This document shows, in pieces, positions 40,035-62,599 of a stretch of DNA of 64,000 nt. The DNA lies in assembly GCA_030646715.1 (NCBI GenBank), contig JAUSLJ010000034.1, positions 5,423 through 69,422 of the forward strand, written 5' to 3'. A program made the translations under genes and the position numbers. Origin of the DNA: Agitococcus sp. GTDB taxonomy: Bacteria > Pseudomonadota > Gammaproteobacteria > Pseudomonadales > Moraxellaceae. The first letter of the stretch is position 1. Every line of letters begins with the position of its first letter. The notes beneath the pieces were generated by a model. That model was given only the letters and a program-made list of their open reading frames with translations. It ran no database searches and was not told where the DNA came from.

Positions 40035-40043
40035 GTTCTTGTC

Positions 40044-41776: not shown

Positions 41777-41794
41777 AACAGGGCAGACCTTTTA

Positions 41795-45537: not shown

Positions 45538-45549
45538 AGAAGAAAGCCT

Positions 45550-46257
45550 TTATTTACTATCAAGCCAATAGTCAATTTCACTGGCCTTCAACGCGCCAGC
45601 CTGCTGCTTACCATCACCACGCATTAGGGTTGGCGTACCGACAACATTAAGTTTTTCACCCAAGGCCAAGTTTTTTGCCAAGGGATTAGGGCAGTCCAGC
45701 TTTGCCGTTGGTTGAATATTATTGATAAGCAGATTACGCCAAGCATTTGCCTGATTAGGGCTACACCACACACTGATCGCTTTATTCAAAGCATCAGGAT
45801 GCAAGCCTTGAAGGGGATAAGGAAAGACATGAATGGTGACGTTATCCAGCTTGGCAAGCTCAGGTTCGAGTTTTTTACAGTAATGACAGTCGGGGTCAGA
45901 AAAGACGAATAACGCTCTACTTCCCCTACCCTGCACAAAGGTAATTGCCGAATCCAAGGGCAACGCGCCGACATCTACTTTGTTCAAGTCTTTTTGCCGT
46001 TCTGCGGTTAGATCACGTTGCGTGGCCATATCCATGATATGACCAAAGAGAAAATAATCTCCAGCAGCATCGGTATAAGCGACATTCTTACCCATGATGA
46101 TTTCAAACAAACCGTTAAATTGGCTTTTTTGAACGCTGGTGAATTGCGTTTTTGGATACTTGGCTTTGAGCCGCTGCAACACTTCGCCGTCATCATCCGC
46201 CAAGGCATTGCCAACCATTACTACTAATATAACGGCGAGAGTCCACTTTGTCTTCAT
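45550..46257 (-). CDS. dsbC: DsbC-like thiol:disulfide interchange protein
   Basis: The thioredoxin CxxC motif is in 'FSDPDCHYCKKLEPEL'. The signal peptide MKTKWTLAVILVVMVGNALA starts at the internal ATG 46257. The ORF-track start at 46389 adds 44 unlikely residues. Confidence 0.8.
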   Translation of the reverse strand: MKTKWTLAVILVVMVGNALADDDGEVLQRLKAKYPKTQFTSVQKSQFNGLFEIIMGKNVAYTDAAGDYFLFGHIMDMATQRDLTAERQKDLNKVDVGALPLDSAITFVQGRGSRALFVFSDPDCHYCKKLEPELAKLDNVTIHVFPYPLQGLHPDALNKAISVWCSPNQANAWRNLLINNIQPTAKLDCPNPLAKNLALGEKLNVVGTPTLMRGDGKQQAGALKASEIDYWLDSK

Positions 46258-46411
46258 CACTTGCCTAAATAAAATACTATCTGTTATTACTAATATATAA
46301 TAACAGACAAGCCTCTTTAACTCAATTCTACTAATAACAGATATATTTATTAGCACATTTTGAGCGTAGGTCTCTATCCGCAATTTCAACTAACCCATTA
46401 CGGAGACGACT

Positions 46412-48145
46412 ATGTCCTCAACGGTAACGCTGCAAATCAACTCTCAACGTCTGATTAAAAACTTGATGTTTTCTTTTACCAACAAGACCACTTTTTTGAG
46501 TGAGTTAATGCAAAATGCTCGGCGCGCAGGTGCCACGTTTGTGCGTTTTAGTTTTGATGAAGTGTGGCCTAATACCTTGGTCGTAGAAGATGATGGTGCG
46601 GGTATAGCTAACCTTCAAAATTTACTGACTATTGCGGAATCTGGCTGGGATGAAACTATTCAGGCGCAAGAAAATCCGTTTGGTATGGGCTTTATGTCGG
46701 CTTTGTTCGCCGCGCAACGTATCACCGTGCATAGCAATGGCAAACGCCTGAGCTTTGACCGTGAAGAAGCGTTAGAACAAAAGCCAATCATTGTCGAAGA
46801 TAGTCCAAAGGATAGCCAGAGTACCGATGTCAGTACCCGTATTGAACTTTACGGCATTGGTTTAACGCAGGCAGAAGTAATATCCGCCATTGAGACAGCC
46901 GCCCAAGGCTTTGCCATTAAAGTGTTTTTTAATGGTAAGGAGTGTCGTCGTCCCTTTGCATGGGATAATTTGATGCACAATTCCCCCTCGATATATGACG
47001 CAGTATTGTCATTACCGAATCTAGGCGGAATAGCATTCTCAACTCATAACACCGATTTTGAGGTCTATTTATTGGGCATTAAAGTCTATCAAAGTCAGAA
47101 GTACAAATACTTTGGCGGCCTATCAACTATCATCCATTTAGACCCAACGCTATTTACAGCAAGGCTGCCTGATAGACAATGTTTAATTGATGAAACCACG
47201 GCCGTAGAAACCATTAAACGGGTTATTAAATCGTGGTGGGCTCAGCACATTGAACCTCAAATCGGCGTTATTTCTGACGAGGCGTTAATCAGCAAATATT
47301 GGACTGTACTTACCCAATGGGACTTGCCTGATGTTTTGACGCAAATCAAAGCTATTCCAGCAAACTATTTTTGTAAATATACCGATACGCCGATGTGTTA
47401 TCGCTCCGATGGTGACTCTCGGAACAATAATATGGACGACCTCGACGGTAAGCTTATTACAGAGGAACAACTGCGTTCAGGTGATCTTATTGCTTGTCAC
47501 AATACGCCAGACTCCTTGTATGGCTACAATATGATTCCTGCGTTAATTGCCTATTTGAAAGGATGGATTATTCTCAAACAGCATTTGCCATTGAACCATT
47601 GGATTCATGACTATGCTCTCGACTTGGCTGAAGGCGAGCCAACGATTGCCTACCATGCAGAGGCCGAAGGTATGTTTTATGGCCGCGTAGATTTGTTGGT
47701 CAAAACCTACAAACAGCCAATCACTTTGTCATGGCAAGGGCATATTGTTGAGACGAGTGATGTCCCAGTTGTTTTTCATGACAGCCAATCGTACAAGTGC
47801 ATTGCCCTAGCACCCGATGTTTTCTTGACTGACAATCTTTTACTGATGGCTGATTCTTATAGCTACGACGAGTTTGAGCTTTTTGATGGTCAATTGGAAG
47901 ATGACGGGAATCAGTTGTGCTTGGTGATTCAGAGCCTCAACAATACCAGCCCTGCTCGGCTACTGGAAACGATCCTTAATCAAGGTCATTTCAATTTACC
48001 GAATGCCAAAGGTAGTGCGGTATTAGTGGTGACGGATGATAAAGGTAAGCGCAAGGTCGTTAATATGACCCATGTGCTTGCTGCTGATTTTGTGGGCGAT
48101 ATGGCTTACGAATTACAGTCATTGTTAACGGCTAATGCGGCTTAG
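46412..48145 (+). CDS. GHKL (Bergerat-fold) ATPase, stand-alone, 577 aa
   Basis: Motif I 'ELMQNARRAGA' (E..N), motif II 'VEDDGAGI' (DxGxG) and motif III 'NPFGMGFMSA' are present. The ~400-aa C-terminal region is unassigned. Confidence 0.7.
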   Translation: MSSTVTLQINSQRLIKNLMFSFTNKTTFLSELMQNARRAGATFVRFSFDEVWPNTLVVEDDGAGIANLQNLLTIAESGWDETIQAQENPFGMGFMSALFAAQRITVHSNGKRLSFDREEALEQKPIIVEDSPKDSQSTDVSTRIELYGIGLTQAEVISAIETAAQGFAIKVFFNGKECRRPFAWDNLMHNSPSIYDAVLSLPNLGGIAFSTHNTDFEVYLLGIKVYQSQKYKYFGGLSTIIHLDPTLFTARLPDRQCLIDETTAVETIKRVIKSWWAQHIEPQIGVISDEALISKYWTVLTQWDLPDVLTQIKAIPANYFCKYTDTPMCYRSDGDSRNNNMDDLDGKLITEEQLRSGDLIACHNTPDSLYGYNMIPALIAYLKGWIILKQHLPLNHWIHDYALDLAEGEPTIAYHAEAEGMFYGRVDLLVKTYKQPITLSWQGHIVETSDVPVVFHDSQSYKCIALAPDVFLTDNLLLMADSYSYDEFELFDGQLEDDGNQLCLVIQSLNNTSPARLLETILNQGHFNLPNAKGSAVLVVTDDKGKRKVVNMTHVLAADFVGDMAYELQSLLTANAA

Positions 48146-48160
48146 TTTAGTTTTAACCCC

Positions 48161-48194
48161 AAAACCCCGAAGCTTTGCTTTGGGGTTTTTCTTT
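48161..48194 (+). terminator. Rho-independent terminator (copy A of a repeated hairpin)
   Basis: AAAACCCCGAAGC-TTT-GCTTTGGGGTTTT followed by TCTTT, 16 nt after the GHKL gene stop. Confidence 0.75.
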
Positions 48195-48253
48195 ATCGGC
48201 GATCAATAGGGAGTGTATAAATTCAGCCTGTTTCTGTAACGAATCACGATTAC

Positions 48254-49672
48254 TCACTCATTTTTCTGCGTCAGCACATAAACCGTAGCCCGTCCCTGAC
48301 CTTGGCGTGTAATCAAACCAAGCTCTAACAACTCATTAAATAATGACTTTAACTTTGTTTCACTCAGTTGCAATAACGCCACTCCATCCGCACGGGTCAT
48401 TTTAGATCGCTCCAGTAAGTAGCGTAAAATCTGTTGTTGCTCAACACTTAATCGGGCGTAATCGGGCGCAATCAGACTTAATCGGGCATTATCGTTCGTA
48501 AATGCCACAGAATCTGGCTTTTGCGGGTGTGAATCGGCTGCTATCGGACGGTAAAGCTCCACATCGACAAAATCACCTGACTCTTGAATTTTTGGCTCTG
48601 GCAATCCTTGCGCGACACAGACTTGCCTAATGCGCTGCAAACCACTGCCCCACTGCTCAATATAGCCCAACGCCTTAAACACCCTAGCCAAAACCCGATT
48701 ACGAATCTCCGACCGACCCTCCGCCAGATCTTGCACCGTTAAGGTATTAGGAAACCCACCTGCTGATACGATGTTAAGCACATCGTCATAAATGCCAATT
48801 TTGATATTGCGGCCAAAATTGCTGTAATCGCGGTGGACATAGGCGTTAACTAATGCTTCCCGAATAGCACTCTCAGGGACTTCTAAACTATCAGTCCGTT
48901 GCAAGCCCTTGATCTCACCGCGTAAAAACAAATGGTTTTTAATGAACATTTCACTGTTTTCTAACTGAGCAAACAAATCACCTGTGTATTCTTTACGGTC
49001 TAAAAATACCTGCATATCTGTACCTTTAAACCGCGCACATTGCGTACTGACATGCTCAAAATAGCCTAGTAAAATCAGTAAGCCATAACTAGGGTAATCC
49101 TTACCCTGCACCGTTTGAATCAGCCGAAAATTACGCAACTTGGCTTCGTCCAAGACTTTATGCTGGGCGGAAAAACGCTGTGTTAAGGTGGATAAATCTA
49201 GCGTCGAAAGCTCTACATCCACACACGCTTCTTCATCAAAACTCAGGTGCTGCTTTTGTCGCTCTAGCTCGGCAATATAATCCAAACTGGCTGAGCGATT
49301 ACTTGCACCGACACGAATATAAACCCCGTCTGCTTTGCCTTTACTTTTTAAGAAGTAAGGTAATGATTGCCCACGAAACACCTCAACCATTAAAATCAGC
49401 TTGTCTTCAACATGACTGGTATAAATTTCTGGACGCAAGGTCGGGTGAATTTGCTCATACAAACTTGCATAAATACGGTCTTGGATATCTAAAACGCTGT
49501 CAGCATCCACACCCACCAATGAACCATTATCATCAACGCCAATCAATAGCTTGCCGCCACTGGTATTGGCAAAGGCAATCACGGTCTTGGCAATTTGTTC
49601 AAAGCGTGGCAGTTCGCGCTTAAATTCCAGCGTTTTACTCTCGCCCTGAGCAATCAATGACAGAACACTCAT
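48254..49672 (-). CDS. AlbA_2 (Schlafen-like 'divergent AAA') + HATPase_c_4-like + wHTH protein
   Basis: The N-terminus 'IAQGESKTLEFKRELP...VIAFANTSGGKLLIGVDDNG' is the classic AlbA_2 signature. 'REALVNAYVHRDY' is typical of the following ATPase-like domain. The C-terminus is wHTH-like. Confidence 0.8.
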   Translation of the reverse strand: MSVLSLIAQGESKTLEFKRELPRFEQIAKTVIAFANTSGGKLLIGVDDNGSLVGVDADSVLDIQDRIYASLYEQIHPTLRPEIYTSHVEDKLILMVEVFRGQSLPYFLKSKGKADGVYIRVGASNRSASLDYIAELERQKQHLSFDEEACVDVELSTLDLSTLTQRFSAQHKVLDEAKLRNFRLIQTVQGKDYPSYGLLILLGYFEHVSTQCARFKGTDMQVFLDRKEYTGDLFAQLENSEMFIKNHLFLRGEIKGLQRTDSLEVPESAIREALVNAYVHRDYSNFGRNIKIGIYDDVLNIVSAGGFPNTLTVQDLAEGRSEIRNRVLARVFKALGYIEQWGSGLQRIRQVCVAQGLPEPKIQESGDFVDVELYRPIAADSHPQKPDSVAFTNDNARLSLIAPDYARLSVEQQQILRYLLERSKMTRADGVALLQLSETKLKSLFNELLELGLITRQGQGRATVYVLTQKNE

Positions 49673-49788
49673 AACTTTACCTTCGCCACGTTCTCGACAA
49701 TATTTTTGCGTAATTTGTTAGCCATCTTCCTGAGCTGTTTTTCTAAAGGCTCTTCTTTAACTGTTTTTTCTACTTTGATACGAGCCAT
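49669..49788 (-). CDS. Small basic ORF (39 aa) translationally coupled to the AlbA_2 gene
   Basis: Not in the track because it is under 60 aa. The translation is MARIKVEKTVKEEPLEKQLRKMANKLRKNIVENVAKVKL. AGGA lies about 10 nt upstream, and the stop overlaps the downstream ATG (ATGA). Confidence 0.3.
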   Translation of the reverse strand: MARIKVEKTVKEEPLEKQLRKMANKLRKNIVENVAKVKL

Positions 49789-49979
49789 TGGGGTTTATCC
49801 TTTAACAAAATATTAAAATTGGTGGTAAAAATTTATATATTAAAAGTAAATACGCCACTAATCGTATTTACTACCAAAACAGATATTATTAAAAATAACC
49901 TATATCTTCACTAGTATGTCTTGGCTTTATTTTATCGTAAAAATGCCCTTCACAAATTGCAAAGGGCATTAAAGTTCAA

Positions 49980-50354
49980 TCAATCATCGCATGGAAACAT
50001 AATCGTTAATACAGGTTCGGCATTATCGCCAGGGCCAATATCAATAATCACGTTATGCATACTACTCACAGGCAAGTTTTCATCGCCGTAGCTAAAATTA
50101 ACACGTCGAGCATTTGGACGCTGTTTACTGGAGTAGATAGCCTCACTACAACAACGCGCAAGAAACGCAGTCAGTCTCAACGACTCAATCTCAGCATTAC
50201 CACTTTCAATAATGCTCGACCACAATGTTTGAGTAACCACCGTCGGTAGTCTAAAACCAACCTGACAGGCGCGCTCAGTGACATCAATCAGAACACCATC
50301 AGCAATAGCATTCGCTCGTGTATAACAGGACACAACCTCAAAATCTTCAAACAT
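49980..50354 (-). CDS. Conserved-looking small protein (124 aa), function unknown
   Basis: Clean ORF. 'VSCYTRANAIADGVLIDVTE' resembles small proteins I associate with plasmid/ICE leading regions. Family not verified. Confidence 0.45.
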   Translation of the reverse strand: MFEDFEVVSCYTRANAIADGVLIDVTERACQVGFRLPTVVTQTLWSSIIESGNAEIESLRLTAFLARCCSEAIYSSKQRPNARRVNFSYGDENLPVSSMHNVIIDIGPGDNAEPVLTIMFPCDD

Positions 50355-50407: not shown

Positions 50408-51103
50408 TCATATTTTGATGGTGTCCGCACATAAATCGACAATGGAAATCACAGAGGTTTTTTGCCGCTTGATAAACGGCAGCCCTTCCAGTTTTGGCAG
50501 TGGCGCATCACCATGATGCGTCACCCACTGCTTCCGTAATCGACTAAATAGCTTGCCTACCTGCACACGCAGACCACGAAACATCGGCAGCCATAACAGG
50601 AGTTTTTTCGCATCCTCTAATGCTTGTTCGCCTGTTTTGGCACGTTTGGCGGTATCGTCAATTTTACTCTCAAAGACTTTATATTGACTGTCCACCAATC
50701 GCCATGTCCACGAACTACCACCGCCTGAATCACTAGGTTTAGTAAGCTGCACTAGCTCGAATCCCATGAGTGATAAACGCTCTTTTTTCTGCGTTAGGTT
50801 CTTTTTACCTTTTTCTAAAAGGTGGAAGTCGTTGTCACCATCGGTGGCCAACAAAATCCAAACCAGCTTTTTACGCAGCTTAACCCCTAAAAAATGGACA
50901 TTGCCGTACCCAGCTTTTTTACGCCGCGTGCGCTGCATCGGTGAAATATCGACATCATAAGCGGCATTTATCTTGTCAGAAAAGGCACTGACTTTGATGT
51001 AATCCGCTTCTTCAAAAGCACCTGAAACATACCAAATATAACCATCCGTAGCGTGCTGTTGAACACGTTGCAGGAAGGCATTTATGTTATCAAATAAAAC
51101 CAT
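50408..51103 (-). CDS. Hypothetical protein (231 aa)
   Basis: Clean ORF. No motif recognised. Confidence 0.45.
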   Translation of the reverse strand: MVLFDNINAFLQRVQQHATDGYIWYVSGAFEEADYIKVSAFSDKINAAYDVDISPMQRTRRKKAGYGNVHFLGVKLRKKLVWILLATDGDNDFHLLEKGKKNLTQKKERLSLMGFELVQLTKPSDSGGGSSWTWRLVDSQYKVFESKIDDTAKRAKTGEQALEDAKKLLLWLPMFRGLRVQVGKLFSRLRKQWVTHHGDAPLPKLEGLPFIKRQKTSVISIVDLCADTIKI

Positions 51104-51309: not shown

Positions 51310-52294
51310 TGGAGCTTACTCTGAGTTAAATGCGGGTTGCCAACCCGCATAGTCTTATGCCGAAGCCGCATGCTTGTAATTAAGCTGGTGCGGCTACGTC
51401 GGGCGCTGGAAGGTGTAACTCCTTCCTTCGACCCAATCTCAGCGCACTGCGCCGAGACGAGGATTGGGCGACACGGAAACGGGTCTCTAGGTAACTAGAA
51501 TCACCCTGTTGACGACTGTGTGAGTAATCAATCTCACCCAGGGGTGGCAGGAAACTGTCGAACCTGTGACCACACGAGGGCTGCTGAGGGCGTAGAAATG
51601 CGTCAGGGACATGAGGAGAAATCTGGACTGTCTGGTACCAGCAAGAGGGGCAACCCCGCTGGATCGTTGTATAGCTCAACCGTGTAACGGGGACTCATAG
51701 AAGTCTCTGTGGGAATATGATGCGTATGCTGTCGCGGAGCGGCAGTAAGCCTGTGGTGACGACGATTGTGGGAGGTAAGCGAGCCGTTTTGGAATCTTGG
51801 GCCGCCGAAAACCTATTGGGTGAGGGGGAATACCCCAGCATATCCTGCAATCTGAGCCAGTACGCTAAGTATTGAACGTTGTCATCTAACGTGGGAACCA
51901 CTGACGGCCAATGAAGATGGGTGGCACCATCGAGGCGCAAGTGGGGGAGATTCACTGAGTAGGGTTTGAAATCAGGGGCAGACGGGCTGTTGTGTCCTTT
52001 GAGAGTACCGAAAGGTGGAGGCGTAAGCGTAGTGAACGGTTAAGCGCGTGGCAGCGCAAAACTGAGGAATTGCACTGGGAGTGGCATCTCAGTGCAATCC
52101 TATCGTGGAAACGGTAGGGTTCGGTATGGTTATTGGTACGAGTGATTCTCGTAAAAAATTCAATTAGGCCGTGGCTGGCCTCTGTATTGGCAGTACCAAT
52201 TAATTTCGGGCTTCTTCGTTTAGTCAAGGGCTTAATTCTACGGCGTGGAAAACCGTAACCCAAAGCCCCTCTCATTTCGAGAGGGGCTTTCTAT
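51310..52294 (+). ncRNA. Candidate large (~1 kb) structured non-coding RNA, class unknown
   Basis: The plus strand has no ORF of 60 aa or more across 51104-52657. The minus-strand ORFs fall in three frames and are not protein-like. The plus strand is G-rich. There are many stable hairpins, including GNRA-capped ones (51591-51602 CGUA-GAAA-UGCG; 52006-52017 UACC-GAAA-GGUG; 52099-52118 CCUAUCGU-GGAA-ACGGUAGG). Recurring GUGGCA/GUGGCU apical loops occur at 51916-51931, 52044-52057, 52069-52098 and 52166-52181. The segment ends in a strong terminator at 52262-52294. The 5' end is not defined. Confidence 0.5.
52262..52294 (+). terminator. Rho-independent terminator closing the structured segment
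   Basis: AAAGCCCCTCTC-ATTTC-GAGAGGGGCTTT followed by CTAT. The stem is a 12-bp GC-rich perfect match. Confidence 0.6.
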
Positions 52295-52347
52295 ACCTAT
52301 GGCTTGAAGAAAGTTATTTAGTCGTATATTTATAAATCAGTTATTTA

Positions 52348-52451
52348 TTGACTCTAGTTGAATATCCAATTATTATTTCATTTCGACACTGGCTTCTGCT
52401 TAGTAGTTGAAATTGCATCATAAAGGCCAGTTTACTGGCCTTTATTTTTTT
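52348..52451 (+). ncRNA. Candidate small RNA (~70 nt) with its own sigma70-type promoter and terminator
   Basis: TTGACT (52348-52353), a 17-nt spacer, then TATTAT (52371-52376). No ATG occurs downstream. The terminator AAAGGCCAG-TTTA-CTGGCCTTT + ATTTTTTT lies at 52422-52451. Confidence 0.4.
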
Positions 52452-52657
52452 GGTTATAAAAACCACTTAAATTATTATCACTATTATTAATAGAGTCTTA
52501 TTTATAATATATCTTAGCGCAAGATGCTATACTATAAAAAATATCAAGCTCTTGGTCGAACACCACATTTGGTGACAAATGCGTTGCCCTTCAACAACAT
52601 TCACAATAGTGGGAAACTATTAACTCTGTAATTTAAGCATGCTTAAATGTTAATCGC

Positions 52658-53749
52658 CTAATTTAATATTATCCCAAATTCTCTTTGGTATTTAGATGTG
52701 ACTTGATAGCCATGCTCCACAAGTCTATCAAATTCTGACTCACTTAATCGTTTAAGAGTCGTCGGAAAATTAGCTGAAAATAAAGCTGACGGACAGGGCC
52801 GCATTTCGCTAATTGGCTCTCCAATGTAAAGATATGCTCCTCTATTTACACCTTTCAAAAGATAGGCCACAAAAGTTCTAACTCGCAAAGCACGCGCTTG
52901 GTCAGACATGATGTCATTAACCCTCTTCATTCGCCACGGATTCAACGCTCCAAGTGAGAAACCCTGAGCCAGAGGAGCTCCTGCATCCGAAACTACGAGA
53001 GCTACTTCGCTTGGAAGATTGCCCTTTACCTGTCCTTTACCTGCGTCAAAGAATGGCTCCAACCCTAAATTATCATAGACTCCACCGTCATATAAGTGCA
53101 GTTTCGGATATAGGGGAGTAACAGGTTTAGCTTGCTCTGGAGGTTCATTCCACGGCCTTTTATGCCATTCATAACTTGAAGCATCAATCACAAGTGGCCC
53201 AATTCCACCTGGAAATGCTGCCGAAACAGCAAGAGCATTTGCCAATGGGAAATGACTGGAAGAGGCATAACCCAAGACATAGTCCCCCAGATCTTTTTGC
53301 TTAAAACGGAACCGTTTTCCTGTCTCGGCTGTTGTCCCATTGATTGACCACTCGGGCGTCACTGGTAGATCAGCAAGCGTTCCTGAAACCTGCCAAGACT
53401 CACGCAATGCCATGGCGACCAAGTTGGCACGTGACAGCAAAAACCGCCAATTAGAGGGATGACGCAATTGACTTATGGCATCATTCATCAAACTCCGAGA
53501 ACACAACTTCTGTCGCAAAGTCGGCATGACTAGCTCTTGGAACACTTGAGATGTTGGCCATTGCAAGCTCGTTTCTTGCAGTATGAGCCCCAAAATCAGA
53601 CTTCCTCCCGATACCGTGGAAATATGACTCACTTGTTCCAAAGCCTTATTTTCTGCCAGCCAACGGAGAACCCCCAAATGGAAGGCCATTGCTCTTATTC
53701 CTCCGCCTGACAAGGCTAAAGCAATAGGCATATTTTGCGCTTCGCTCAA
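52658..53749 (-). CDS. Patatin-like phospholipase
   Basis: It has the oxyanion motif 'LSGGGIRAMAFHLGVL', a nucleophile-elbow-like 'TVSGGS' and the catalytic Asp motif 'YDGGVYDNLG'. Its start overlaps the upstream gene stop by 4 nt. Confidence 0.85.
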   Translation of the reverse strand: MSEAQNMPIALALSGGGIRAMAFHLGVLRWLAENKALEQVSHISTVSGGSLILGLILQETSLQWPTSQVFQELVMPTLRQKLCSRSLMNDAISQLRHPSNWRFLLSRANLVAMALRESWQVSGTLADLPVTPEWSINGTTAETGKRFRFKQKDLGDYVLGYASSSHFPLANALAVSAAFPGGIGPLVIDASSYEWHKRPWNEPPEQAKPVTPLYPKLHLYDGGVYDNLGLEPFFDAGKGQVKGNLPSEVALVVSDAGAPLAQGFSLGALNPWRMKRVNDIMSDQARALRVRTFVAYLLKGVNRGAYLYIGEPISEMRPCPSALFSANFPTTLKRLSESEFDRLVEHGYQVTSKYQREFGIILN

Positions 53750-55992
53750 AGCACCACCCCCTGATAAACACAGACTTCACTCTCGCTCACGATAAGTGAG
53801 AATGCAGGTAGACCGTCCTCCCTCATACCCATCGCCAACTCAGTAAGCTGAGCGAGATCATCATTACTGAGCCTTGCTGGGCATCCAGGCGGATGGCTAT
53901 GCCACTCACCAATATAACCAACAACTCCTGCTGTGAGTTGTGCAACCTCCATCAATCGTTCTGGCACGCCTACAACTCCACGCTGAAATGACGCTTCAGT
54001 AGAGATGCTGTCCTCTGGAGCTACACAGGCATCCACAATCACAATCACTTTTTCTGTTAGATCGTGATAGCCCAGCAATACCCCACCTGTTTCGGAGGGT
54101 AACTTTTCAGACCGCATCTGCCAAAGCTTCTGTTCAAGCCCCTCATCAATAAAGACTCTGAATACACCATGCTCTATATATCGATTTGCTTGTGTCTCTA
54201 CTGAGTGAAGCTCTACTGCGCCAGTCTGAGGATTTCTCTGCCAAATCCTGATAAAAGAACCTTCCAACTCTGAAACTTGTTGTACCTGCTCTGCAAGACA
54301 AGCTGCATGAACTAATACGCGAGAATAGGGCAATGCCATCGAAATATCCCGACAACTTGCGCCACTCCAATAAGTTCCCAGATGGCCATTAAGATGGTTC
54401 ATTCCCCAACCACTATTTATCACCGCTCGATAATACTGCGCCTCTAGTGACAATAAGCGGATCAAACGCTCACTATCTTCTGCCAATATCACTGCAGCAT
54501 TACCATCTGGAGTAATAAACACAGAGATATGGCGTCCTACCTGGTCTACTTTGCTAATTGCACGCGGGAAATCCAAGCTTGCCGATGCATCCACAACAAG
54601 TTGAGCTTTTTGAAGGGCCGCGACGACTTCTTGCGTCAGCGATGTAGCATCCGCATTGATTGGTGTAACTACCGCAGCTCCGTGTGTCGTGGCTTCGCAT
54701 AACTGAGACACTACCTTTACTTTCAGCTCCCCAACTTGCGCTCCAAACGCAGTATGCCGAACCAAGTTATGAGGTTTAATATGGTCATTATCAATGACAC
54801 TCCACTCTCCCCATCCGCAGCGAGTCCATATATTGAGCATGGCACTACCAAGAGAACCAACACCGACAAGCACACCTTTGGGGCCTTCTGAACTAACGCC
54901 AGACTGTATACGTAATCTAGACTTGCTATTAAAACTCAATACCTCTATAGCTGATACGACCTTCGCTCTCCATCCTGCATTTTGGCTCTCATCAACATGC
55001 CCCAAAACATCCGCATAAAACTTATTCCCTGAAAATAAATATGCCCCAATTGCCTCTCCAATCTCTCGACGATCAGCATGAAAAAAGAAGGCTTTATGTT
55101 CTATTCTCTCTTGGAAATTTCCAGCAGCCCTAACAATAGGCGTCCGTAGCAAAAGTATTACTCTTAGGGCCTGTCCTTTGGAAGCCAACCCATTCGCTGT
55201 AATGTTTTCAAGAAGACTTTGGCGTAGGGGCGACAGCACATCTATCCTTTTGGATGCCATTTGGTCTGCCAATTCCCCTAAATTTGATGGCAGCCGTTCC
55301 ACTGCTCCATGAACAACTGGTAGTGTATCCACTGTAATAATGGAGATATCCATACCAAGCTGCTGCCCATCTTTAGGTAAAGCATCTAAAACAAGAGACA
55401 GTCTTCCACCCGATCGCTCAACAACCCTGCTCACTTGGTATGCCATTCTAGGATCATTGCTAATTTCATCAAAATTCCAAGGAAGGATAAGCTCATAAGG
55501 AGTCATAAAAAATAGCTGCTCTACAGGCTGGTCTGCTGCATGCAAATTTTCATTAGCAGTTGATGTAAGCCACCATTGCAGTTGACGCAAAAACTTTTGA
55601 GGGGTCCACGTCCGCAACACGGTTGCTTTCGGCCCAAAATAAAGGCAAAGGCTCAATGGATTACCAAGAGGTGTGGAGTTCATATGCGGCAATGCAGGGA
55701 AATCAGTCCTTAAAGCCAGCACATCAACCAATTCACGGTCATTTTTATCCACCACCAGTGCAAACCGTTCTGGATATTGAATCCCAAGTCGATTGCCTGG
55801 CGGAAAGCCATCACAAGCGACCTCGACAATCAGAGCCTCTTTTTCTACTTGACCATCCTTCGTACTAAAGAGAATTTCTAAGAGCTGACAGTCTGGATTA
55901 TTACTAACTGCGTCTATTAGGCCTTTGGTTCGATTAAAAGAGGGTTGCCCATGGGGCAACACCTCCATATTATCAAGTGAGAAATAGCTCAT
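53746..55992 (-). CDS. E2-like + E1 (ThiF-like) + JAB/MPN triple-fusion protein (Cap2+Cap3-like)
   Basis: The N-terminal 'LPHMNSTPLGNPLSLCLYFG' matches the UBC-like HxN...C motif. The central 'VLVGVGSLGSAMLNIWTRCGWGEWSVIDNDHIKPHNLVRH' is a ThiF/E1 Rossmann fold. The C-terminal 'ETGGVLLG ... GEWHSHPPGCPARLSNDD' is a complete JAMM motif (E...HxH...S..D). Confidence 0.85.
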   Translation of the reverse strand: MSYFSLDNMEVLPHGQPSFNRTKGLIDAVSNNPDCQLLEILFSTKDGQVEKEALIVEVACDGFPPGNRLGIQYPERFALVVDKNDRELVDVLALRTDFPALPHMNSTPLGNPLSLCLYFGPKATVLRTWTPQKFLRQLQWWLTSTANENLHAADQPVEQLFFMTPYELILPWNFDEISNDPRMAYQVSRVVERSGGRLSLVLDALPKDGQQLGMDISIITVDTLPVVHGAVERLPSNLGELADQMASKRIDVLSPLRQSLLENITANGLASKGQALRVILLLRTPIVRAAGNFQERIEHKAFFFHADRREIGEAIGAYLFSGNKFYADVLGHVDESQNAGWRAKVVSAIEVLSFNSKSRLRIQSGVSSEGPKGVLVGVGSLGSAMLNIWTRCGWGEWSVIDNDHIKPHNLVRHTAFGAQVGELKVKVVSQLCEATTHGAAVVTPINADATSLTQEVVAALQKAQLVVDASASLDFPRAISKVDQVGRHISVFITPDGNAAVILAEDSERLIRLLSLEAQYYRAVINSGWGMNHLNGHLGTYWSGASCRDISMALPYSRVLVHAACLAEQVQQVSELEGSFIRIWQRNPQTGAVELHSVETQANRYIEHGVFRVFIDEGLEQKLWQMRSEKLPSETGGVLLGYHDLTEKVIVIVDACVAPEDSISTEASFQRGVVGVPERLMEVAQLTAGVVGYIGEWHSHPPGCPARLSNDDLAQLTELAMGMREDGLPAFSLIVSESEVCVYQGVVL

Positions 55993-57152
55993 ACCGACTT
56001 ACCGGCACGCACGGGCGCTGCCGCCGCCAAAGCTGTTGCCCCAACCACAGCGGAACGAATCCACGATACTCCGCCATACGTTACGTCAAAAACAAGCGGC
56101 TCTGGATGTTTTTTGTTTGGTGTCTCCATTGTTACCAATATCCGGCGTCCTCCCACCTTATCAAGGTAACGTTGATAAGTATTGTAAGCCTGTACATGTG
56201 GAGGTTGTATTTGCAAGTAGGCATCCTTATCTTTCTCAATCGGGCGACTAGAGACTACCTCATACGCCTGCCGCTTCCCCATCAAGAGAAGGTCTTTAAC
56301 TAAAGGCTTGGGCTCCGTTTCGTTATCCCCTTTGGTGTCGCTGAGTGCCAAATAACTACAATGATGTGGCACATTGAAAAGATCCCAAGCAAGGCGATCA
56401 TCATTTCCGTGGTAACGTGTAGTAGATACTATGTCTTCAAGAACAGACCATTCAGCGTCACCAACAGCAAGATAATCGTATCGATTGCCTTCAGCCTCAA
56501 ACCGGATGTTAAAAATCAACGACGCATCGTTACGAACAACATCTCCATCTGGACAGTGCTTGATAAAAGGAGAATGACAAAAGAACTCTACGCCATCTTT
56601 TTCCAAGGTAAAGCCAGAAACAATAGTTCCTGCATCAACAATTAGATGATCACGTGCCGTAGCCGCCTCGCCCCTTTCTTTAAGTTTACGCTCTAACAAC
56701 TCTGCCAAAGCTGGAGGCTTCGAAAATACCCGAATCCCCTTTCCTTCTAAAAGTCGATGCTGAGCCTCTCGACGTAGAATAGCAAACTCATCAGACTGCT
56801 GATCCCTGCAAACATGCTCTATCACCATTGCTGCAGGCACCCAGAGTTCGTCAATCTTAATGCGCCCATTTCCTTGGTATTTCAGTGCATGATTCAGCTC
56901 AAAAAAGTCAGTGCTGCCAGAAATATGGTCAGAGTCAGCATGAGTAAAAACGACCACATCAAAATTGTCACGACCAGCATCTTTGAGCTCTTTTTTAAGA
57001 CGAGCCTTTAGATCAATAACAGGCGAAGTTGGATCTTCACCTTTCAATTGATGACGATAATCCATAAGGATCCGGCGTTTGTTGGAAAGGATAATTTGGC
57101 TTGTATCGCCATTACCCACTGGATAGAAAAGAATCTGATGTTTAGTTGACAT
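55989..57152 (-). CDS. Metallo-beta-lactamase-fold hydrolase (ComEC/Rec2-type motif), first gene of the operon
   Basis: 'LFYPVGNGDTSQII' and 'VVVFTHADSDHISG' (HxDxDH variant of HxHxDH). It is 387 aa with a ~100-aa C-terminal extension ending '...AAAAPVRAGKSV'. Confidence 0.75.
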   Translation of the reverse strand: MSTKHQILFYPVGNGDTSQIILSNKRRILMDYRHQLKGEDPTSPVIDLKARLKKELKDAGRDNFDVVVFTHADSDHISGSTDFFELNHALKYQGNGRIKIDELWVPAAMVIEHVCRDQQSDEFAILRREAQHRLLEGKGIRVFSKPPALAELLERKLKERGEAATARDHLIVDAGTIVSGFTLEKDGVEFFCHSPFIKHCPDGDVVRNDASLIFNIRFEAEGNRYDYLAVGDAEWSVLEDIVSTTRYHGNDDRLAWDLFNVPHHCSYLALSDTKGDNETEPKPLVKDLLLMGKRQAYEVVSSRPIEKDKDAYLQIQPPHVQAYNTYQRYLDKVGGRRILVTMETPNKKHPEPLVFDVTYGGVSWIRSAVVGATALAAAAPVRAGKSV

Positions 57153-57408
57153 AAACGATACCTAAAAGTCTAAAAATGGATTACTCGCCCACTCAGCTTC
57201 CCTTCTACCGTCCCACAATCCGTAATAGTGCCAGTTGCAAAAACACTACATATAGTGTTAACCAACTCAAAGTAGCACAAAATATACTACCTGACATCGT
57301 AACGCTAAAGACCACACTGATGCGTCTACACGACAGTATCTGACGTGAAGCCTTCTTATGTATCTTGGATTAACCATGAGCACTATAGAAGATATTTCAT
57401 CACGTATA

Positions 57409-57426
57409 CGTAAGATATATCTTACG
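57409..57426. promoter_or_regulatory. Operator-like perfect palindrome CGTAAGATA|TATCTTACG (site 1)
   Basis: This 18-bp perfect palindrome lies in the divergent intergenic region between the MBL operon and the HTH gene. Confidence 0.5.
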
Positions 57427-57457
57427 ACGCGTCTTGTAAAGTCGTATGCTATAATTT

Positions 57458-57476
57458 CGTAATGATATATCTTACG
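57458..57476. promoter_or_regulatory. Operator-like near-palindrome CGTAATGATATATCTTACG (site 2)
   Basis: It is a near-copy of site 1, 49 bp downstream. It lies immediately after a TATAAT hexamer (57450-57455) and 19 nt before the HTH gene ATG. Confidence 0.45.
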
Positions 57477-57494
57477 AGAAAAGAGTAATAAACG

Positions 57495-57821
57495 ATGTCT
57501 TTGTCTAACAGACTTAAGGAACTACGCCTAAAAAAGGGAAAGTCACTTCAGGAAGCAGCTGATGCATTGGGCTTCTCCAAAGCCCATCTGTGGGAATTAG
57601 AGAGTGGCAAAAGTAAAAATCCCTCCGCTGAGCTGCTTAAAAAACTATCAGATTATTTTGAAGTTTCGATAGGTTGGCTATTAGGAGAAGATGAATCATC
57701 TACTGATGATCAAAAGATAAAAGTGCTTTTTAGGCAACTTCAAGAACTACGACAAGAAGACCTTGATCTCATTCAAGCCATAATTAACACTAGACAAAGC
57801 CAGGGTGAAAAAAAGGTGTAA
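57495..57821 (+). CDS. XRE-family HTH repressor (CapH / ImmR-like)
   Basis: 'LKELRLKKGKSLQEAADALGFSKAHLWELESGK' is a canonical XRE HTH. It is 108 aa and ends 2 nt before the protease gene. Confidence 0.85.
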   Translation: MSLSNRLKELRLKKGKSLQEAADALGFSKAHLWELESGKSKNPSAELLKKLSDYFEVSIGWLLGEDESSTDDQKIKVLFRQLQELRQEDLDLIQAIINTRQSQGEKKV

Positions 57822-57823
57822 TC

Positions 57824-58720
57824 ATGCTCATTGACAGGATGGAGTTAGCAGATATAACAAAACCAGGTCCTATGGCAGCTGCCGTGCTTAAGCAAGTCAG
57901 GGAGCAAAATAATGGTGTACTCCCCATTCCTATCCCGATAGAAGAGATTGCTTATGGAGCAGATATTTCAGGAATTTCCCCCATACAAACACCAGGCTTT
58001 CAGGGAGCGCTCATCATCACTGATGGCGGCTCTATCGGCCATATCCTGAAAAATGCCAACAGTCCCATCACCCGGCAACGATACACCGTTGGACATGAGC
58101 TGGGTCATTGGCTATTGCCATTGCACTCTGTCAAAACCAAAGAACTCTACTGTACATCCGTACAGATGACTCGGGACTTCTCCAAAAACTTATCTCCCGC
58201 TGAAAGGATTGAAGTCGAAGCCAATATGTTCGCAGCTGAGATTCTTTTACCTGACAGAGAGTTCAAGAACGATTTAAGACCTTTTGGAGAGCCATCTCTG
58301 CAGGCACTTCTGGCATTATCTGAAAAATTTGAAGTTAGTAAGCTCGCCACTGCTAAACGCTATACAACGTTAAATGATCACCCATGCGCAGTTGTCACAT
58401 CGAAAGACTGCCTCGTCCAACACATCTTTCGTGGCCGAGACTTTCCTTCTTTGGGCCTCAAGGTTGGATATCCTCTTCCTCCAAGGAGTCATTCATTCAC
58501 ACTCAAGAGGACGCTGAAGAAATGCAGCGAAATCGTACTTGCTAGATGGGAGAACTGGCTTAAAGATCAGCCTCATGCCACTGCTGAATTGTACGAACAA
58601 GTGCTCCATCAGGCTGATGGTTACATAATGACTTTACTGTATCTGAATATGGATAACTGTCCTGATGAAGATGAAGAGTTTATTGAGCGCAGCTCCATCT
58701 GGAATCCGACATTGCGGTAA
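57824..58720 (+). CDS. ImmA/IrrE-family zinc metallopeptidase (CapP / ImmA-like)
   Basis: The HEXXH motif is in 'YTVGHELGHWLLP', with 'EVEANMFAAEILLP' downstream. Both are typical of COG2856 ImmA/IrrE. Confidence 0.85.
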   Translation: MLIDRMELADITKPGPMAAAVLKQVREQNNGVLPIPIPIEEIAYGADISGISPIQTPGFQGALIITDGGSIGHILKNANSPITRQRYTVGHELGHWLLPLHSVKTKELYCTSVQMTRDFSKNLSPAERIEVEANMFAAEILLPDREFKNDLRPFGEPSLQALLALSEKFEVSKLATAKRYTTLNDHPCAVVTSKDCLVQHIFRGRDFPSLGLKVGYPLPPRSHSFTLKRTLKKCSEIVLARWENWLKDQPHATAELYEQVLHQADGYIMTLLYLNMDNCPDEDEEFIERSSIWNPTLR

Positions 58721-58955
58721 ATGTATTGCAGCACACCGCTAACTGAAAAGAGGCAATCGCTCATATTTCGACAACAGCTGTCAATTCTTCAATTGTAAGT
58801 TAAGTATTGTTCATGACAAAATCAGCTCATCAATCAAAACTCCTAACTTGATTTCATTCGAATCACAACCAAAACTAGCCATTCCTGCTGCAATAACACA
58901 TGATGAATGTAGGCCTCTGGAGCGCAATTTCAATTCACTCCAAAAGGCTTTATCT

Positions 58956-59846
58956 ATGGCTAATCATGATTTGTACCAAGAAGTCACTAACACTTTCATC
59001 GCTTTATTAGAACAAGACGGTATTCAATCTTGGCGTAAAGCATGGAAAAACATCTCCAGCTCACCTATCAACATCATTACAGGTACACAATATCGTGGCT
59101 GGAATTGGTTTTCTTTAACCTTAGCTGCTGGCCCTCGCCCCAATCAATGGGCGACGTTTAAGCAGGTTCAAAGTCAGAATGGTCACATTCGCAAAGGATC
59201 GGCTGGTGTTAAAATAGGCTTTTATACACCACGCGAAAAAAATGAGTCAGGCGACGAGCAGACATCTGACGAAGCTTTAGCAGAGAAAAGCCATCGGTTT
59301 ATTTTTCGCATCTACCATGTGTTTAATGCCTTGGATATTGAAGGTATTACCGTTCCCTCCCCTATTCCATTTGAAGGCAACGCGATTCAGTCATTAATGA
59401 CAGTTTGCTTGTCTAAGCTCAAGAAAGATGGCTTGGTATATAAACGTGTCGGAAATAAGGCTGCCTATTGGCCTAAGCAAGACATTATCACTATGCCTGA
59501 AGGAAGCTTTGATAGTCCTCAAGATTACTGCGCCATTCTTGCCCATGAAATGACTCATGCGACAGAGTCACGTTTAGGTCGCCGTGAGAAAATAAATGAC
59601 TGGTTTCCAGACTTCGATGAGTCCTATGCTTTTGAAGAGCTGGTCGCTGAGCTAGGTGCTGCTTTTATTTGCGCTCATTTTAACATTAAGGGCGATTACG
59701 ACAATCATGCCAGCTATTTGCATAGTTGGCTGAAGATACTTAAAGGTGACAAATTTACGTTGTATCGTGCGGTAAAACTAGCACAAGAAGCTGCTGATTG
59801 GCTTCTTGATCAACAAGTAGCACCTGCTTTGCAGGAAGCTGCTTGA
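58956..59846 (+). CDS. ardC: ArdC-like antirestriction protein (ssDNA-binding N-domain + zincin metalloprotease)
   Basis: I chose the start at 'MANHDLYQEVTNTFIALLEQ...WRKAW' because it matches the usual ArdC N-terminus. The ORF track opens at 58848. The metalloprotease motif is 'AILAHEMTHATESR'. Confidence 0.85.
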   Translation: MANHDLYQEVTNTFIALLEQDGIQSWRKAWKNISSSPINIITGTQYRGWNWFSLTLAAGPRPNQWATFKQVQSQNGHIRKGSAGVKIGFYTPREKNESGDEQTSDEALAEKSHRFIFRIYHVFNALDIEGITVPSPIPFEGNAIQSLMTVCLSKLKKDGLVYKRVGNKAAYWPKQDIITMPEGSFDSPQDYCAILAHEMTHATESRLGRREKINDWFPDFDESYAFEELVAELGAAFICAHFNIKGDYDNHASYLHSWLKILKGDKFTLYRAVKLAQEAADWLLDQQVAPALQEAA

Positions 59847-60458: not shown

Positions 60459-61889
60459 ATGGCGTTTGATGCATCTCCTTCTTGGAGCGGTTTCAATTAT
60501 CAGGGGAAAGTTGCTCTTTATTATGCCTTGAAGCTGATAAACGATCATCCTATAAGCCAAGACTTATCGAATTACAGCTTGATGCTTGAGGCCACCGAGG
60601 ACTTCGAGATTCAGCGTGACGGTGTTTCACTCTCTTATCATCAGGTGAAAGCCTATGCCCAAAGTTCATATAGCACATACTCCAATGCTCTCTTTGGAGT
60701 TCTTCTAGAGCTGTATAAATCGCCGAGTGTGACAGGATGGATTCATACTTGGAATGCTATAAATTCTAAGCCTGACTTTGCGGATCTGACCAGCTCAATC
60801 CAAGATGATATGAATATTGTCATAGCGCAGTATACAAACAAAAAGCCTGGCGAAAAAGGAATAGTGCTGGACGATGCAGCGTCTGATAAAAAAGGAATAA
60901 CTAAGCAAGCAGCAATTATCAGGGCCGCTATTCCAGGGAAAACCTCGGATCAATTGAGAGATATACTTAATGAAATAGTTCTAAGACAAAATGACTGCCT
61001 TAGCCGCTTTGCTGCATATGAATACGATGATGGCAATAAATTTTGTGATCTAACTGAAATAAATATAAAAATAAAATTCGAGATATCTAGAGCCATGAGT
61101 GCTAGAGGAACTGTCGTTACGCAAGAACAGCTTGAGAAATGTTTCAACTACTTCTTAGGGTATATAGACGAACACATCATCTGTAGGCATGAAAATAAAA
61201 CAAAAACAAGCTTGCCAATAGGCTTCCAAGAAATAGTTGTAGCCTTGAGGACTGATCATGAAGATATTGGCAGTGAATATCTAGTCTATAAATTTAAAGA
61301 TCAATTTGCCTATTTAATAGACGAGTACCTAGGCGATCCAGATGACTACACAGAGCCAGCGGAAGAAGTATATTGCAATCTAATGGAGGCAAGAAAACTT
61401 CTTCTAGGCCTTAGCCCAAAAGATCTCTGGAAACATTATCGTAGTTTTTCCCCACAGATTTACCTTCAACATACACACAATACGGTTAACGCTCTTTCGA
61501 CAAACCCTGAAGGTATTCGGCACGTACTATTAAAAATCCTTCATGCAATTAACTTCGCTTGCGCATCACACAATGCCACAAAATACAAACTAACCTATCG
61601 AACGACAACATCGCCATATCAATTTTATTTGCCAACAACCATAACAAGCACTGCCCGTGTAAGCCAAATAGTTAAGAAAATTACAGAAAACCCAAGTATG
61701 AATGAGATTTTATTTGAAGTTGAAAATCTTATTTATGGAGGTCAAGAACGATTCTCTTTTTCTCCTTCTTTGATAGTGCGCACTGAGGCACCAATAGCGG
61801 ATGGAGATGATACTCGCTCAAAAAGGGACGAAATTTTAAAGGAAATAACACTAGTGCCTATATCAATTGCAAAGGATTTATTAACTTAA
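60459..61889 (+). CDS. lmuA: Lamassu LmuA, Cap4-type (DUF4297) nuclease domain protein
   Basis: The N-terminal 'SGFNYQGKVALYYALKLI ... LEATEDFEI...YHQVKAY' fits the DUF4297/Cap4 PD-(D/E)xK pattern. It is followed by a small gene and an SMC-like ATPase. Confidence 0.7.
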   Translation: MAFDASPSWSGFNYQGKVALYYALKLINDHPISQDLSNYSLMLEATEDFEIQRDGVSLSYHQVKAYAQSSYSTYSNALFGVLLELYKSPSVTGWIHTWNAINSKPDFADLTSSIQDDMNIVIAQYTNKKPGEKGIVLDDAASDKKGITKQAAIIRAAIPGKTSDQLRDILNEIVLRQNDCLSRFAAYEYDDGNKFCDLTEINIKIKFEISRAMSARGTVVTQEQLEKCFNYFLGYIDEHIICRHENKTKTSLPIGFQEIVVALRTDHEDIGSEYLVYKFKDQFAYLIDEYLGDPDDYTEPAEEVYCNLMEARKLLLGLSPKDLWKHYRSFSPQIYLQHTHNTVNALSTNPEGIRHVLLKILHAINFACASHNATKYKLTYRTTTSPYQFYLPTTITSTARVSQIVKKITENPSMNEILFEVENLIYGGQERFSFSPSLIVRTEAPIADGDDTRSKRDEILKEITLVPISIAKDLLT

Positions 61890-62599
61890 TGATCAATATT
61901 ATAAATAACATCCTTACTAGCTTTGGCTATCAACAGGCTAATATAGAATATAGTCTCGATAATCTAGCAATGTTTTTGTTTATTCCAGCTAGTGAAAGTA
62001 ATAGGGAAGAATACTTTGTCACGTTACAATTAAATATCCAATCCGATGAGTCAGCACAAACCATCCTTGAAGAAACAGCACAAGAATTATTTGAGTCAAT
62101 ACGTAATTCTGGAAAAGTTGAACGCTCTTTCGAAAAAAACTGCACCATGATCATCTGCCATGAAGACGCCATGATCAGTAGAAATACAATACTCGCACTT
62201 GAAGAAGATCAATATAACTTTAAGAAAAACGTGGTCACCTACGCCGAACACGAACTTCACGCCTTAAAAACTCACCTTTCCGAGAGTGGCGTAGAACATC
62301 TAACCAACAAAATTATCAACGAGATAATCAATTTTGGAGGCGGGAAAAGGTTTTTGGAATTCAAGAATAACCACAAAAACATCAATGACCATTATTCGCT
62401 GATACTAAAAATAGCACTCAAGCTTCCATTTATAACCTACAGTCCGCATGAGCAGCAACTTACCAATTTGAGCCTTGAGATTGAACAATCTTTCAACCAT
62501 TACCAGTCTGTAATTTTTACTCAACTGATGGAGTCAGGCGAGTGGGCAGATGAAAACACCCATCAACAAGTCGAGAGGATTTGGGGAAATATTGAATGA
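61889..62599 (+). CDS. lmuC: Lamassu middle component (LmuC/DdmB-like), 236 aa
   Basis: The call rests on position and size between the nuclease gene and the SMC-like ATPase gene, with overlapping start/stop codons on both sides. Confidence 0.55.
   Translation: MINIINNILTSFGYQQANIEYSLDNLAMFLFIPASESNREEYFVTLQLNIQSDESAQTILEETAQELFESIRNSGKVERSFEKNCTMIICHEDAMISRNTILALEEDQYNFKKNVVTYAEHELHALKTHLSESGVEHLTNKIINEIINFGGGKRFLEFKNNHKNINDHYSLILKIALKLPFITYSPHEQQLTNLSLEIEQSFNHYQSVIFTQLMESGEWADENTHQQVERIWGNIE

Follow-up and report, generated by a model that had tools for sequence, protein, structure and literature searches.

A probable three-gene member of the anti-phage 6A-MBL system, with a patatin and CapH/CapP-like regulators, on a conjugative element of Agitococcus sp.

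Can an operon that carries most of the parts of a type II CBASS (a system for signalling against phages through cyclic oligonucleotides), but has no cyclase, be assigned to a known defence system? The question is raised by a locus at 52658-58720 of a 64-kb stretch of DNA from Agitococcus sp. (contig JAUSLJ010000034.1), the whole of which is referred to here as the window and to which all coordinates refer. An earlier sequence-only reading had regarded the composition of this locus as uncharacterised. The answer reached here, to which we give a probability of roughly 65%, is that the locus belongs, with three genes, to the known and named anti-phage 6A-MBL system and is carried on a conjugative element and placed under a CapH/CapP switch.

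Gene calls were taken from an open reading frame (ORF) scan of the 64-kb window with translations. Five genes make up the locus, three on the minus strand and then, past a 342-bp gap, two on the plus strand. The first minus-strand gene (55989-57152) encodes a metallo-beta-lactamase (MBL)-fold enzyme of 387 aa with a ComEC-type metal site (HxDxDH), identified from NCBIfam, AlphaFold2 (AF2), Foldseek and conservation. It is followed by the gene for a 748-aa Cap2_3 fusion (53746-55992, minus strand; NCBIfam, Pfam), which combines E2, E1 and JAB in a single chain, and by a third gene (52658-53749, minus strand; Pfam) for a patatin-like phospholipase of 363 aa, translationally coupled to the fusion. 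According to the ORF coordinates, 4-nt overlaps join the MBL gene to the fusion gene (55989-55992) and the fusion gene to the patatin gene (53746-53749). The patatin start is a TTG, with an alternative ATG six codons inward. Divergent from this operon are the genes for a CapH-like helix-turn-helix (HTH) repressor of 108 aa (57495-57821, plus strand; PADLOC, Pfam) and a CapP-like zinc metallopeptidase of 298 aa (57824-58720, plus strand; PADLOC, Pfam and the motif read from the translation). The ORFs, 4-nt overlaps, motifs and two palindrome copies listed in the sequence-only reading all hold, as do its domain assignments (Pfam, NCBIfam, fold search).

Family identity of the core pair

The MBL-fold protein matches NF058524, 'anti-phage 6A-MBL system MBL-fold protein' (6A-MBL_enzyme), over the entire profile (positions 1-346 of 346) with 373.5 bits and an E-value of 9.6e-112, and the 748-aa fusion scores 656.8 bits against NF058523, 'anti-phage 6A-MBL system cap2_3 protein'. 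The equivalog cut-offs of these NCBIfam models are 220 bits and 320 bits, respectively. The locus is placed in the 6A-MBL system because both proteins exceed these cut-offs and because 78 of 80 related loci have an MBL homologue as the immediate upstream neighbour of the fusion, with tight junctions (-4, -1 or 0 nt in 46 loci). The 80 loci were obtained by scanning one genome per species, calling ORFs and searching them with the window proteins. Fusion identity ranges from 31 to 54%, and the loci span Proteobacteria, Cyanobacteria, Nitrospirota, Bacteroidota, Acidobacteriota, Patescibacteria and others. One of the two exceptions (L037) is a contig fragment that begins inside the fusion gene; the other (L012) is without explanation. 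The MBL family itself is compact: a search of 1.84 billion clusters gave 120 representatives at E <= 1e-30.

The fusion carries, in order, matches to the Pfam families Prok-E2_A (PF14457; 9e-27), ThiF (1e-13) and Prok-JAB (6e-10). The E2-like domain covers residues 43-174 (55471-55866, minus strand) and contains H103 and C116, both invariant among the 80 fusion homologues. The E1 adenylation domain (residues 374-551; 54340-54873, minus strand) has a GxGxxG motif at 377-382, the conserved residues D401, R412, K424 and D468, and an invariant C547. The JAB/JAMM isopeptidase domain (residues 618-730; 53803-54141, minus strand), which is recognised by Pfam, PADLOC and conservation, contains E634, H698-x-H700, S709 and D712. 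All three catalytic centres are invariant or nearly so across the 80 sequences. Single-sequence searches of the PDB yielded almost nothing, and profile and fold searches were needed; the fusion profile matches the Cap2 structure 7to3 (E 1.4e-6) and the JAB peptidase 9ild (3e-8).

PADLOC models for CBASS E1-E2 proteins (down to 3e-22) and JAB proteins (down to 4e-21) also match the fusion, and Cap2-like and Cap3-like domains, a patatin and a CapH/CapP pair together form the parts list of type II CBASS. The locus might thus be a decayed type II CBASS that has lost its CD-NTase (a nucleotidyltransferase of the cGAS/DncV-like type), in which the MBL is a chance neighbour and the patatin a leftover CapV. 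We regard this as highly improbable. The neighbourhood survey contradicts decay, as the MBL-fusion pairing is kept in nearly all loci across many phyla; each core protein exceeds the cut-off of an equivalog model made for 6A-MBL, neighbouring genes share 4-nt overlaps, the MBL carries a conserved conjugation tail (described below), and the patatin matches no CBASS effector model. Confusion is nonetheless easy at the level of annotation: PADLOC 2.0 would recognise no more here than E1-E2 and JAB components of CBASS type, and the MBL escapes Pfam, so such loci are easily mistaken for a 'cyclase-less CBASS'.

The sequence-only reading had seen neither a cyclase nor a gene for a ubiquitin-like protein (Ubl), and neither was found by Pfam, PADLOC, NCBIfam or the ORF scan. 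No other ORF is big enough for a CD-NTase, the only ORFs of at least 120 aa between 52.3 and 58.8 kb being the five genes themselves, and none of the five proteins matches a CD-NTase in Pfam, PADLOC or NCBIfam. A separate Ubl gene was not found either among these genes, which are contiguous save for the 342-bp regulatory gap; the sole intergenic ORF (55 aa, 57176-57343) has no counterpart in the 80 related loci. Ordinary or decayed type II CBASS was rejected on the absent CD-NTase and the conserved MBL-fusion pairing, and a Bil- or Bub-like system on the absence of a Ubl ORF, the 55-aa intergenic ORF being unconserved.

6A-MBL is reportedly an experimentally validated defence system, as papers citing the 2024 work of van den Berg have it. 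A 2026 review credits van den Berg et al. (2024) with validating 6A-MBL, along with other systems, in Pseudomonas aeruginosa, and a 2025 preprint counts it with known jumbo-phage defences. The pairing of an E2-E1-JAB fusion with an MBL was defined computationally as operon type 6a by Iyer, Burroughs and Aravind (2006; PMC1779556). The composition of the MBL and fusion core is thus not uncharacterised, as had been supposed, being type 6a and represented by NCBIfam equivalogs, and the claim of novelty falls for the two core genes because these belong to a named and reportedly validated system. Nor is the MBL a one-off occupant of a slot that is normally the cyclase's; it is the defining partner of the fusion. 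The locus is real, and its less well described parts are the patatin in third position and the CapH/CapP switch.

The MBL enzyme and its C-terminal tail

The MBL is only weakly seen by general domain models, with Pfam Lactamase_B at 1.5e-3, which is under threshold. Its AF2 model has a predicted local distance difference test score (pLDDT) of 81 and a predicted template modelling score (pTM) of 0.85, and the best PDB match to this model is the beta-lactamase-like domain of ComEC (9ic4; Foldseek, E 4.5e-12), which bears out the label 'ComEC-type' in the sequence-only reading. Conserved motifs among 36 homologues are G13-N-G-D16, H71-A-D73-x-D75-H76, H169, H193, D232 and H263-H264, and the metal ligands are invariant in this alignment. 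The N-terminal region is also distantly similar in sequence to Avs1a (7e-8) and to the LmuA-type MBL of PADLOC (1e-14), and distantly related defence MBLs are autoinhibited DNases. By fold and by analogy, the enzyme is probably a ComEC-like phosphodiesterase that acts as a DNase.

The last 20 residues of the MBL (368-387; 55992-56051, minus strand) form a tail that is disordered by pLDDT and conserved at its end, and that is proposed as the site of JAB trimming and E1 adenylation. Near the end of the protein is the motif R382-A383-G384 (56001-56009, minus strand), in which all three residues are invariant in the 36-MBL alignment, followed by the extension KSV. Conservation of this motif was examined in MBLs from fusion-linked loci. 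The chain ends exactly at RAG in 54 of 72 locus-derived homologues, while the remaining 18 carry a further 1-9 unconserved residues, as does the window protein (RAG-KSV). Several such extensions finish with a second RAG, for example PRAG-LESRPLRAG and PRAG-WRAG. Even the most divergent two-gene forms retain the motif, including those of Pseudomonas (...APRAG-TAEK) and E. coli plasmid pSE11-2 (...APRAG-VSNQ), and others have KAG. The motif is taken to lie at the end of a flexible tail because residues 368-380 of the model have a pLDDT below 50. A beta-grasp domain concealed in the MBL C-terminus was considered and ruled out; the structure prediction called for by the sequence-only reading gives a short beta-hairpin and then the disordered tail, with no beta-grasp.

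A precedent for such a tail is found in type II CBASS, where the CD-NTase has a conserved Gly or Ala as its C-terminal residue only if the operon also encodes full Cap2 and Cap3; Cap2 is joined to this residue in a thioester, and the same position is the cleavage site of Cap3 (PMC10097602). The tail of the MBL can be read as a conjugation handle because an invariant RAG, ragged extensions and a disordered tail match the CD-NTase pattern. Comparative evidence strongly supports the MBL itself as the likely ubiquitin-like conjugation substrate, following predicted trimming by the JAB domain. The sequence-only reading had proposed either the MBL or the patatin as substrate, of which the first is upheld by the invariant RAG and the second is not: patatin C-termini vary freely, making the patatin an unlikely substrate. 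The invariant RAG with its ragged extensions also predicts the exact residue to be adenylated and the exact site of JAB cleavage.

Third gene, regulators and genomic setting

The third-gene protein matches Pfam Patatin at 2e-18. Its homologues all keep S47, which belongs to a VSGGS motif, and D221-G-G, and nearly all of them keep the GGGxR oxyanion motif at 15-19. With its AF2 model (pLDDT 87.7), Foldseek gives matches to PlpD and to the filaments of CapE and CapV at a template modelling (TM) score of about 0.5, which is a generic likeness, and the sequence profile finds only weak matches to cPLA2 and VipD. Pfam and the AF2 model show no recognisable ligand-sensor domain. By sequence, then, the protein is predicted to be an active phospholipase. 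Its identification as a CapV orthologue found no support, with no CBASS effector model matched, a TM score of about 0.5 to CapV and a profile that leads to cPLA2 and VipD.

In 29 of the 80 loci the next gene after the fusion encodes a patatin, with a disrupted copy in two more and a patatin as fourth gene in one (about 40%), and in 13 loci the fusion and patatin genes overlap by 4 nt. The neighbourhood survey proposed in the sequence-only reading thus finds linkage of the fusion to the MBL in almost every locus and to a patatin in a large minority. No single architecture is commoner in the sample than the three-gene form with a patatin, and the window locus is not exceptional in the family. 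Where the patatin is absent, the third slot is filled by a predicted four-transmembrane protein (256-280 aa; 11-12 loci, mostly cyanobacterial), a small protein with 2-4 transmembrane segments (164-192 aa; six loci), a calcineurin-like phosphoesterase (metallophosphoesterase; two loci), or an MBL-like paralogue of ~290 aa (13 loci: L002, L003, L006-L009, L012, L013, L016, L021, L029, L035 and L077). A group of Nostoc loci has an S1/P1 nuclease farther downstream. About a dozen of the 80 loci have no third gene, and E. coli plasmid pSE11-2 carries a two-gene form with a WYL regulator upstream.

The ~290-aa paralogue, as seen in L006, has the metal motif N-A-D-L-D-H, not H-A-D-x-D-H, and by its sequence may be inactive. 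A conserved gene of ~226 aa without a Pfam match usually comes next.

Since other protein types occupy the third position where the patatin is absent, it resembles in its behaviour the slot for exchangeable effectors in CBASS, Pycsar or Thoeris. This repertoire raises the question of whether the MBL is the killer or the controller. An alternative to the MBL acting as a DNase effector is that the MBL and Cap2_3 form a constant sensing and signalling, or activating, module, while the effector in the third slot (here the patatin) is the sole killer, much as in CBASS. The conjugated MBL would make a small-molecule or otherwise diffusible cue, or be attached to the effector. On such a scheme 6A-MBL would be a modular three-part pathway, in which the conjugated MBL is the counterpart of the CD-NTase and controls interchangeable effectors, either by a signal that the hydrolase makes or by covalent attachment. 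We hold this as a tentative alternative, with clearly less than an even chance.

Several features speak for it. The repertoire in the third position is typical of second-messenger systems, and loci with a patatin are dispersed over all major branches of the neighbour-joining tree built from the fusions, interleaved with other types. The MBL is far more conserved than the fusion among one and the same set of relatives (65-77% versus 45-57% identity), and the Corbett laboratory refers to conjugated proteins as 'signaling enzymes'. The two-gene forms, which include the E. coli plasmid, point the other way, and the curated system consists of two models; in those cases, therefore, the MBL must suffice. 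Related defence MBLs are DNase effectors, and the patatin has no ligand-sensor domain to receive a cue. We also know of no MBL-fold enzyme that makes an immune second messenger. If MBL-controlled, swappable effectors were nevertheless true, they would represent a new coupling of protein conjugation to effector activation in bacterial immunity. Whichever role the MBL has, a third gene is frequent and its types form a typical effector repertoire, which suggests that the curated two-gene definition of 6A-MBL misses part of the system.

Of the two regulators, the 108-aa protein matches PADLOC capH at 1.1e-22 (profile positions 5-97 of 103) and Pfam HTH_3 at 3e-13, and the 298-aa protein matches PADLOC capP at 1.6e-46 (positions 14-241 of 242) and Pfam Peptidase_M78 at 3.5e-13. 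The CapH/CapP-like pair proposed from the letters of the window is thus recognised over nearly the full length of both models. The translation of the peptidase contains H91-E-L-G-H95, and Cys110 is located where the cysteine-switch loop is expected. In CBASS-linked pairs, CapP activated by single-stranded DNA cleaves CapH, and the immune operon is derepressed (PMC13228613; 10.1101/2022.04.27.489752). Among the 80 loci, both regulator genes are present in three and a CapP-like gene alone in three more, and CapH/CapP is therefore one of several interchangeable 6A-MBL regulators. The Corbett laboratory has likewise found MBL operons downstream of CapK/CapS regulators.

A palindrome search of the divergent promoter region found a perfect 18-bp palindrome, CGTAAGATATATCTTACG (57409-57426), which is a candidate CapH operator and shares positions with the -10 hexamer of a promoter-like site on the minus strand (57412-57440). 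With <=3 mismatches allowed, the palindrome occurs nowhere else in the 64 kb, with 0.03 chance matches expected. A second, imperfect copy with one inserted base (57458-57476) is 19 bp upstream of the capH ATG and just downstream of a TATAAT (57451-57456) that precedes capH. A 14-nt sequence recurs exactly in both copies, at a spacing of 50 bp.

Taken together, the following course of events can be proposed for the 6A-MBL reading. By homology, CapH would sit on both palindromes of the divergent promoter region and hold the operon low. Single-stranded DNA from phage replication or DNA damage would activate CapP, which would cut CapH and derepress the operon, as in the CapH/CapP pairs of CBASS. 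One translationally coupled mRNA would then yield all three proteins. The JAB domain would trim KSV after Gly384 of the MBL, and the E1 domain would adenylate Gly384 and pass it as a thioester from Cys547 to Cys116 of the E2 domain, and from there to lysines of target proteins; for these two steps the comparative evidence is strong. The MBL would in this way stand in for ubiquitin, or for the CD-NTase of type II CBASS, and the JAB domain would also reverse the conjugates. Conjugation would prime or relocate the ComEC-like MBL phosphodiesterase, which is probably a DNase, and the patatin is predicted to be a membrane-destroying effector that completes abortive infection.

Some observations weigh against this reading. 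The MBL is only 16% identical to ComEC, and its substrate is taken solely from this distant similarity of fold. Sequence, profile and fold searches found no structure of a 6A-MBL protein in the PDB. For the patatin, PADLOC and NCBIfam give no match to a CBASS effector model, and in the fold search it is no closer to CapV than to PlpD. Promoter and terminator scans returned counts that are not above chance, and because of the count of promoter-like sites in the region the overlap of palindrome and promoter is suggestive only. Two other loci that bear CapH/CapP contain no comparable inverted repeat under the same search settings.

The setting of the locus bears on a further alternative. A block of F-type type IV secretion genes lies at 36723-46389 (minus strand) and encodes TraG (TraG_N), TraN, TrbC, TraU and a DsbC-like thioredoxin. 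Given these F-type transfer genes, the window comes from a conjugative plasmid or an integrative and conjugative element (ICE), with the 6A-MBL locus as its cargo. The MBL protein is 100% identical to one from a metagenome-assembled genome (MAG) of Agitococcus sp. Directly downstream of capP is a gene for an ArdC-like anti-restriction protein (58848-59846, plus strand; ArdcN and MPTase-PolyVal zincin domains), and this neighbour suggests that the locus is located in or near the leading region of the element. Among plasmids in PLSDB, 259 carry a fusion homologue and 133 of these are conjugative, and many fusion homologues are annotated as 'integrative and conjugative element protein'. The module might accordingly serve the conjugative element itself, through ComEC-like processing of incoming or outgoing DNA, exclusion of competing plasmids or addiction, a reading favoured by the F-type genes, the adjoining ArdC, the share of conjugative plasmids and the annotations. 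We think this improbable, although less so than a decayed CBASS. The family is reported as an anti-phage system and is also found on chromosomes and beside restriction-modification systems; the regulators that accompany it, namely CapH/CapP in the window, WYL in E. coli and CapK/CapS in other cases, are of immune-operon types; and defence systems are common cargo of conjugative elements. An anti-phage 6A-MBL locus carried as cargo remains the preferred reading.

Other features of the window were noted alongside. A two-gene module of the ABC-3C type (60459-62599, plus strand), 1.7 kb from the 6A-MBL regulators, is a candidate second defence system. Its first protein (476 aa) has a Cap4-nuclease-like N-terminus and a CTD1 domain (1.5e-46) and matches the LmuA model of PADLOC (3.8e-36), and it is followed by a 236-aa MComp1 protein. 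On the other side, 46412-50354 holds likely defence or anti-defence cargo, namely a GHKL-type ATPase (HATPase_c_3, 577 aa), a Schlafen/AlbA_2 and HATPase_c_4 protein (472 aa) and a DUF6573 protein (124 aa). At 8001-9000, inside a 1201-aa ORF (7378-10983, plus strand), GC skew spikes to +0.40 (it is about 0 elsewhere) and GC content then falls to 0.37; the spike may reflect a repetitive or compositionally odd protein segment.

Beside the patatin stop is an ORF-free stretch (51.1-52.65 kb) that contains an element at 51330-52455 (plus strand). This element matches stretches without annotation in 27 plasmids, which come from E. coli, Paraburkholderia, Ralstonia, Azotobacter and others and of which some are just 3 kb in size, and in comparison with these gaps invariant blocks alternate with compensatory stems. 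A hairpin at 51364-51395 resembles domain 5 of group II introns (AGC triad, 8-bp stem, UG bulge, 5-bp stem and tetraloop), and a terminator-like hairpin is present at 52420-52445. A divergent 231-aa ORF (50408-51103, minus strand) adjoins the element, and two plasmids, E. coli pAVS0947-C and Paraburkholderia pBN5, have a homologue of this ORF beside their own copy of the element. Roth et al. (2021; PMC8637638) described group II ribozymes that are circularly permuted ('T-large' RNA), together with AcpG, a protein associated with them, and on sequence grounds the element and the 231-aa ORF look like such a pair. The identification was made through plasmid-gap homology and the literature, as Rfam 15 gave no match to the ORF-free stretch, even at E <= 1.

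Comparison with known systems

The closest relative of the locus is 6A-MBL itself, with which it shares an MBL directly upstream of an E2-E1-JAB triple fusion, both above the equivalog cut-offs, and the (P)RAG tail that also occurs in the divergent two-gene forms of Pseudomonas and E. coli plasmids. It differs in gene content: the NCBIfam models and the descriptions available to us comprise two genes, whereas the window locus adds a coupled patatin and CapH/CapP. The published two-gene definition, as far as these descriptions go, may be incomplete.

With type II CBASS the locus has in common E2-E1 and JAB domains homologous to Cap2 and Cap3, a patatin as putative effector, a CapH/CapP regulator and a partner enzyme with a conserved C-terminal Gly, here the RAG of the fusion-linked MBLs. 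It lacks the CD-NTase, and an MBL-fold hydrolase is proposed as the conjugated enzyme in its place. In addition, Cap2 and Cap3 are fused in a single chain, no cyclic-nucleotide signal is implied, and the patatin matches no CapV model, with a TM score to the CapV and CapE filaments of about 0.5.

Bil (6e) and Bub (6c) likewise use E1, E2 and JAB-type enzymes in anti-phage defence, and JAB processing there exposes a reactive C-terminus. In those systems, however, the modifier is a separate beta-grasp Ubl, while the modifier proposed here is a 43-kDa enzyme with a disordered tail. CapH/CapP, which is related to IrrE/DdrO and ImmA/ImmR, is an HTH and M78 zinc peptidase pair placed divergently upstream of an immune operon with palindromic candidate operators, as it is here, except that the operon in the window is 6A-MBL and not CBASS. 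Finally, the trypsin-MBL module of Hachiman, AVAST and Argonaute systems (Avs1a and HamM-type MBL DNases) offers a parallel at the level of the enzyme, a defence MBL that is toxic and kept under post-translational control by a partner. There, control is exerted through the proteolytic removal of inhibitory loops, whereas here it is predicted to be exerted by a conjugating and deconjugating enzyme acting on the C-terminal tail of the MBL.

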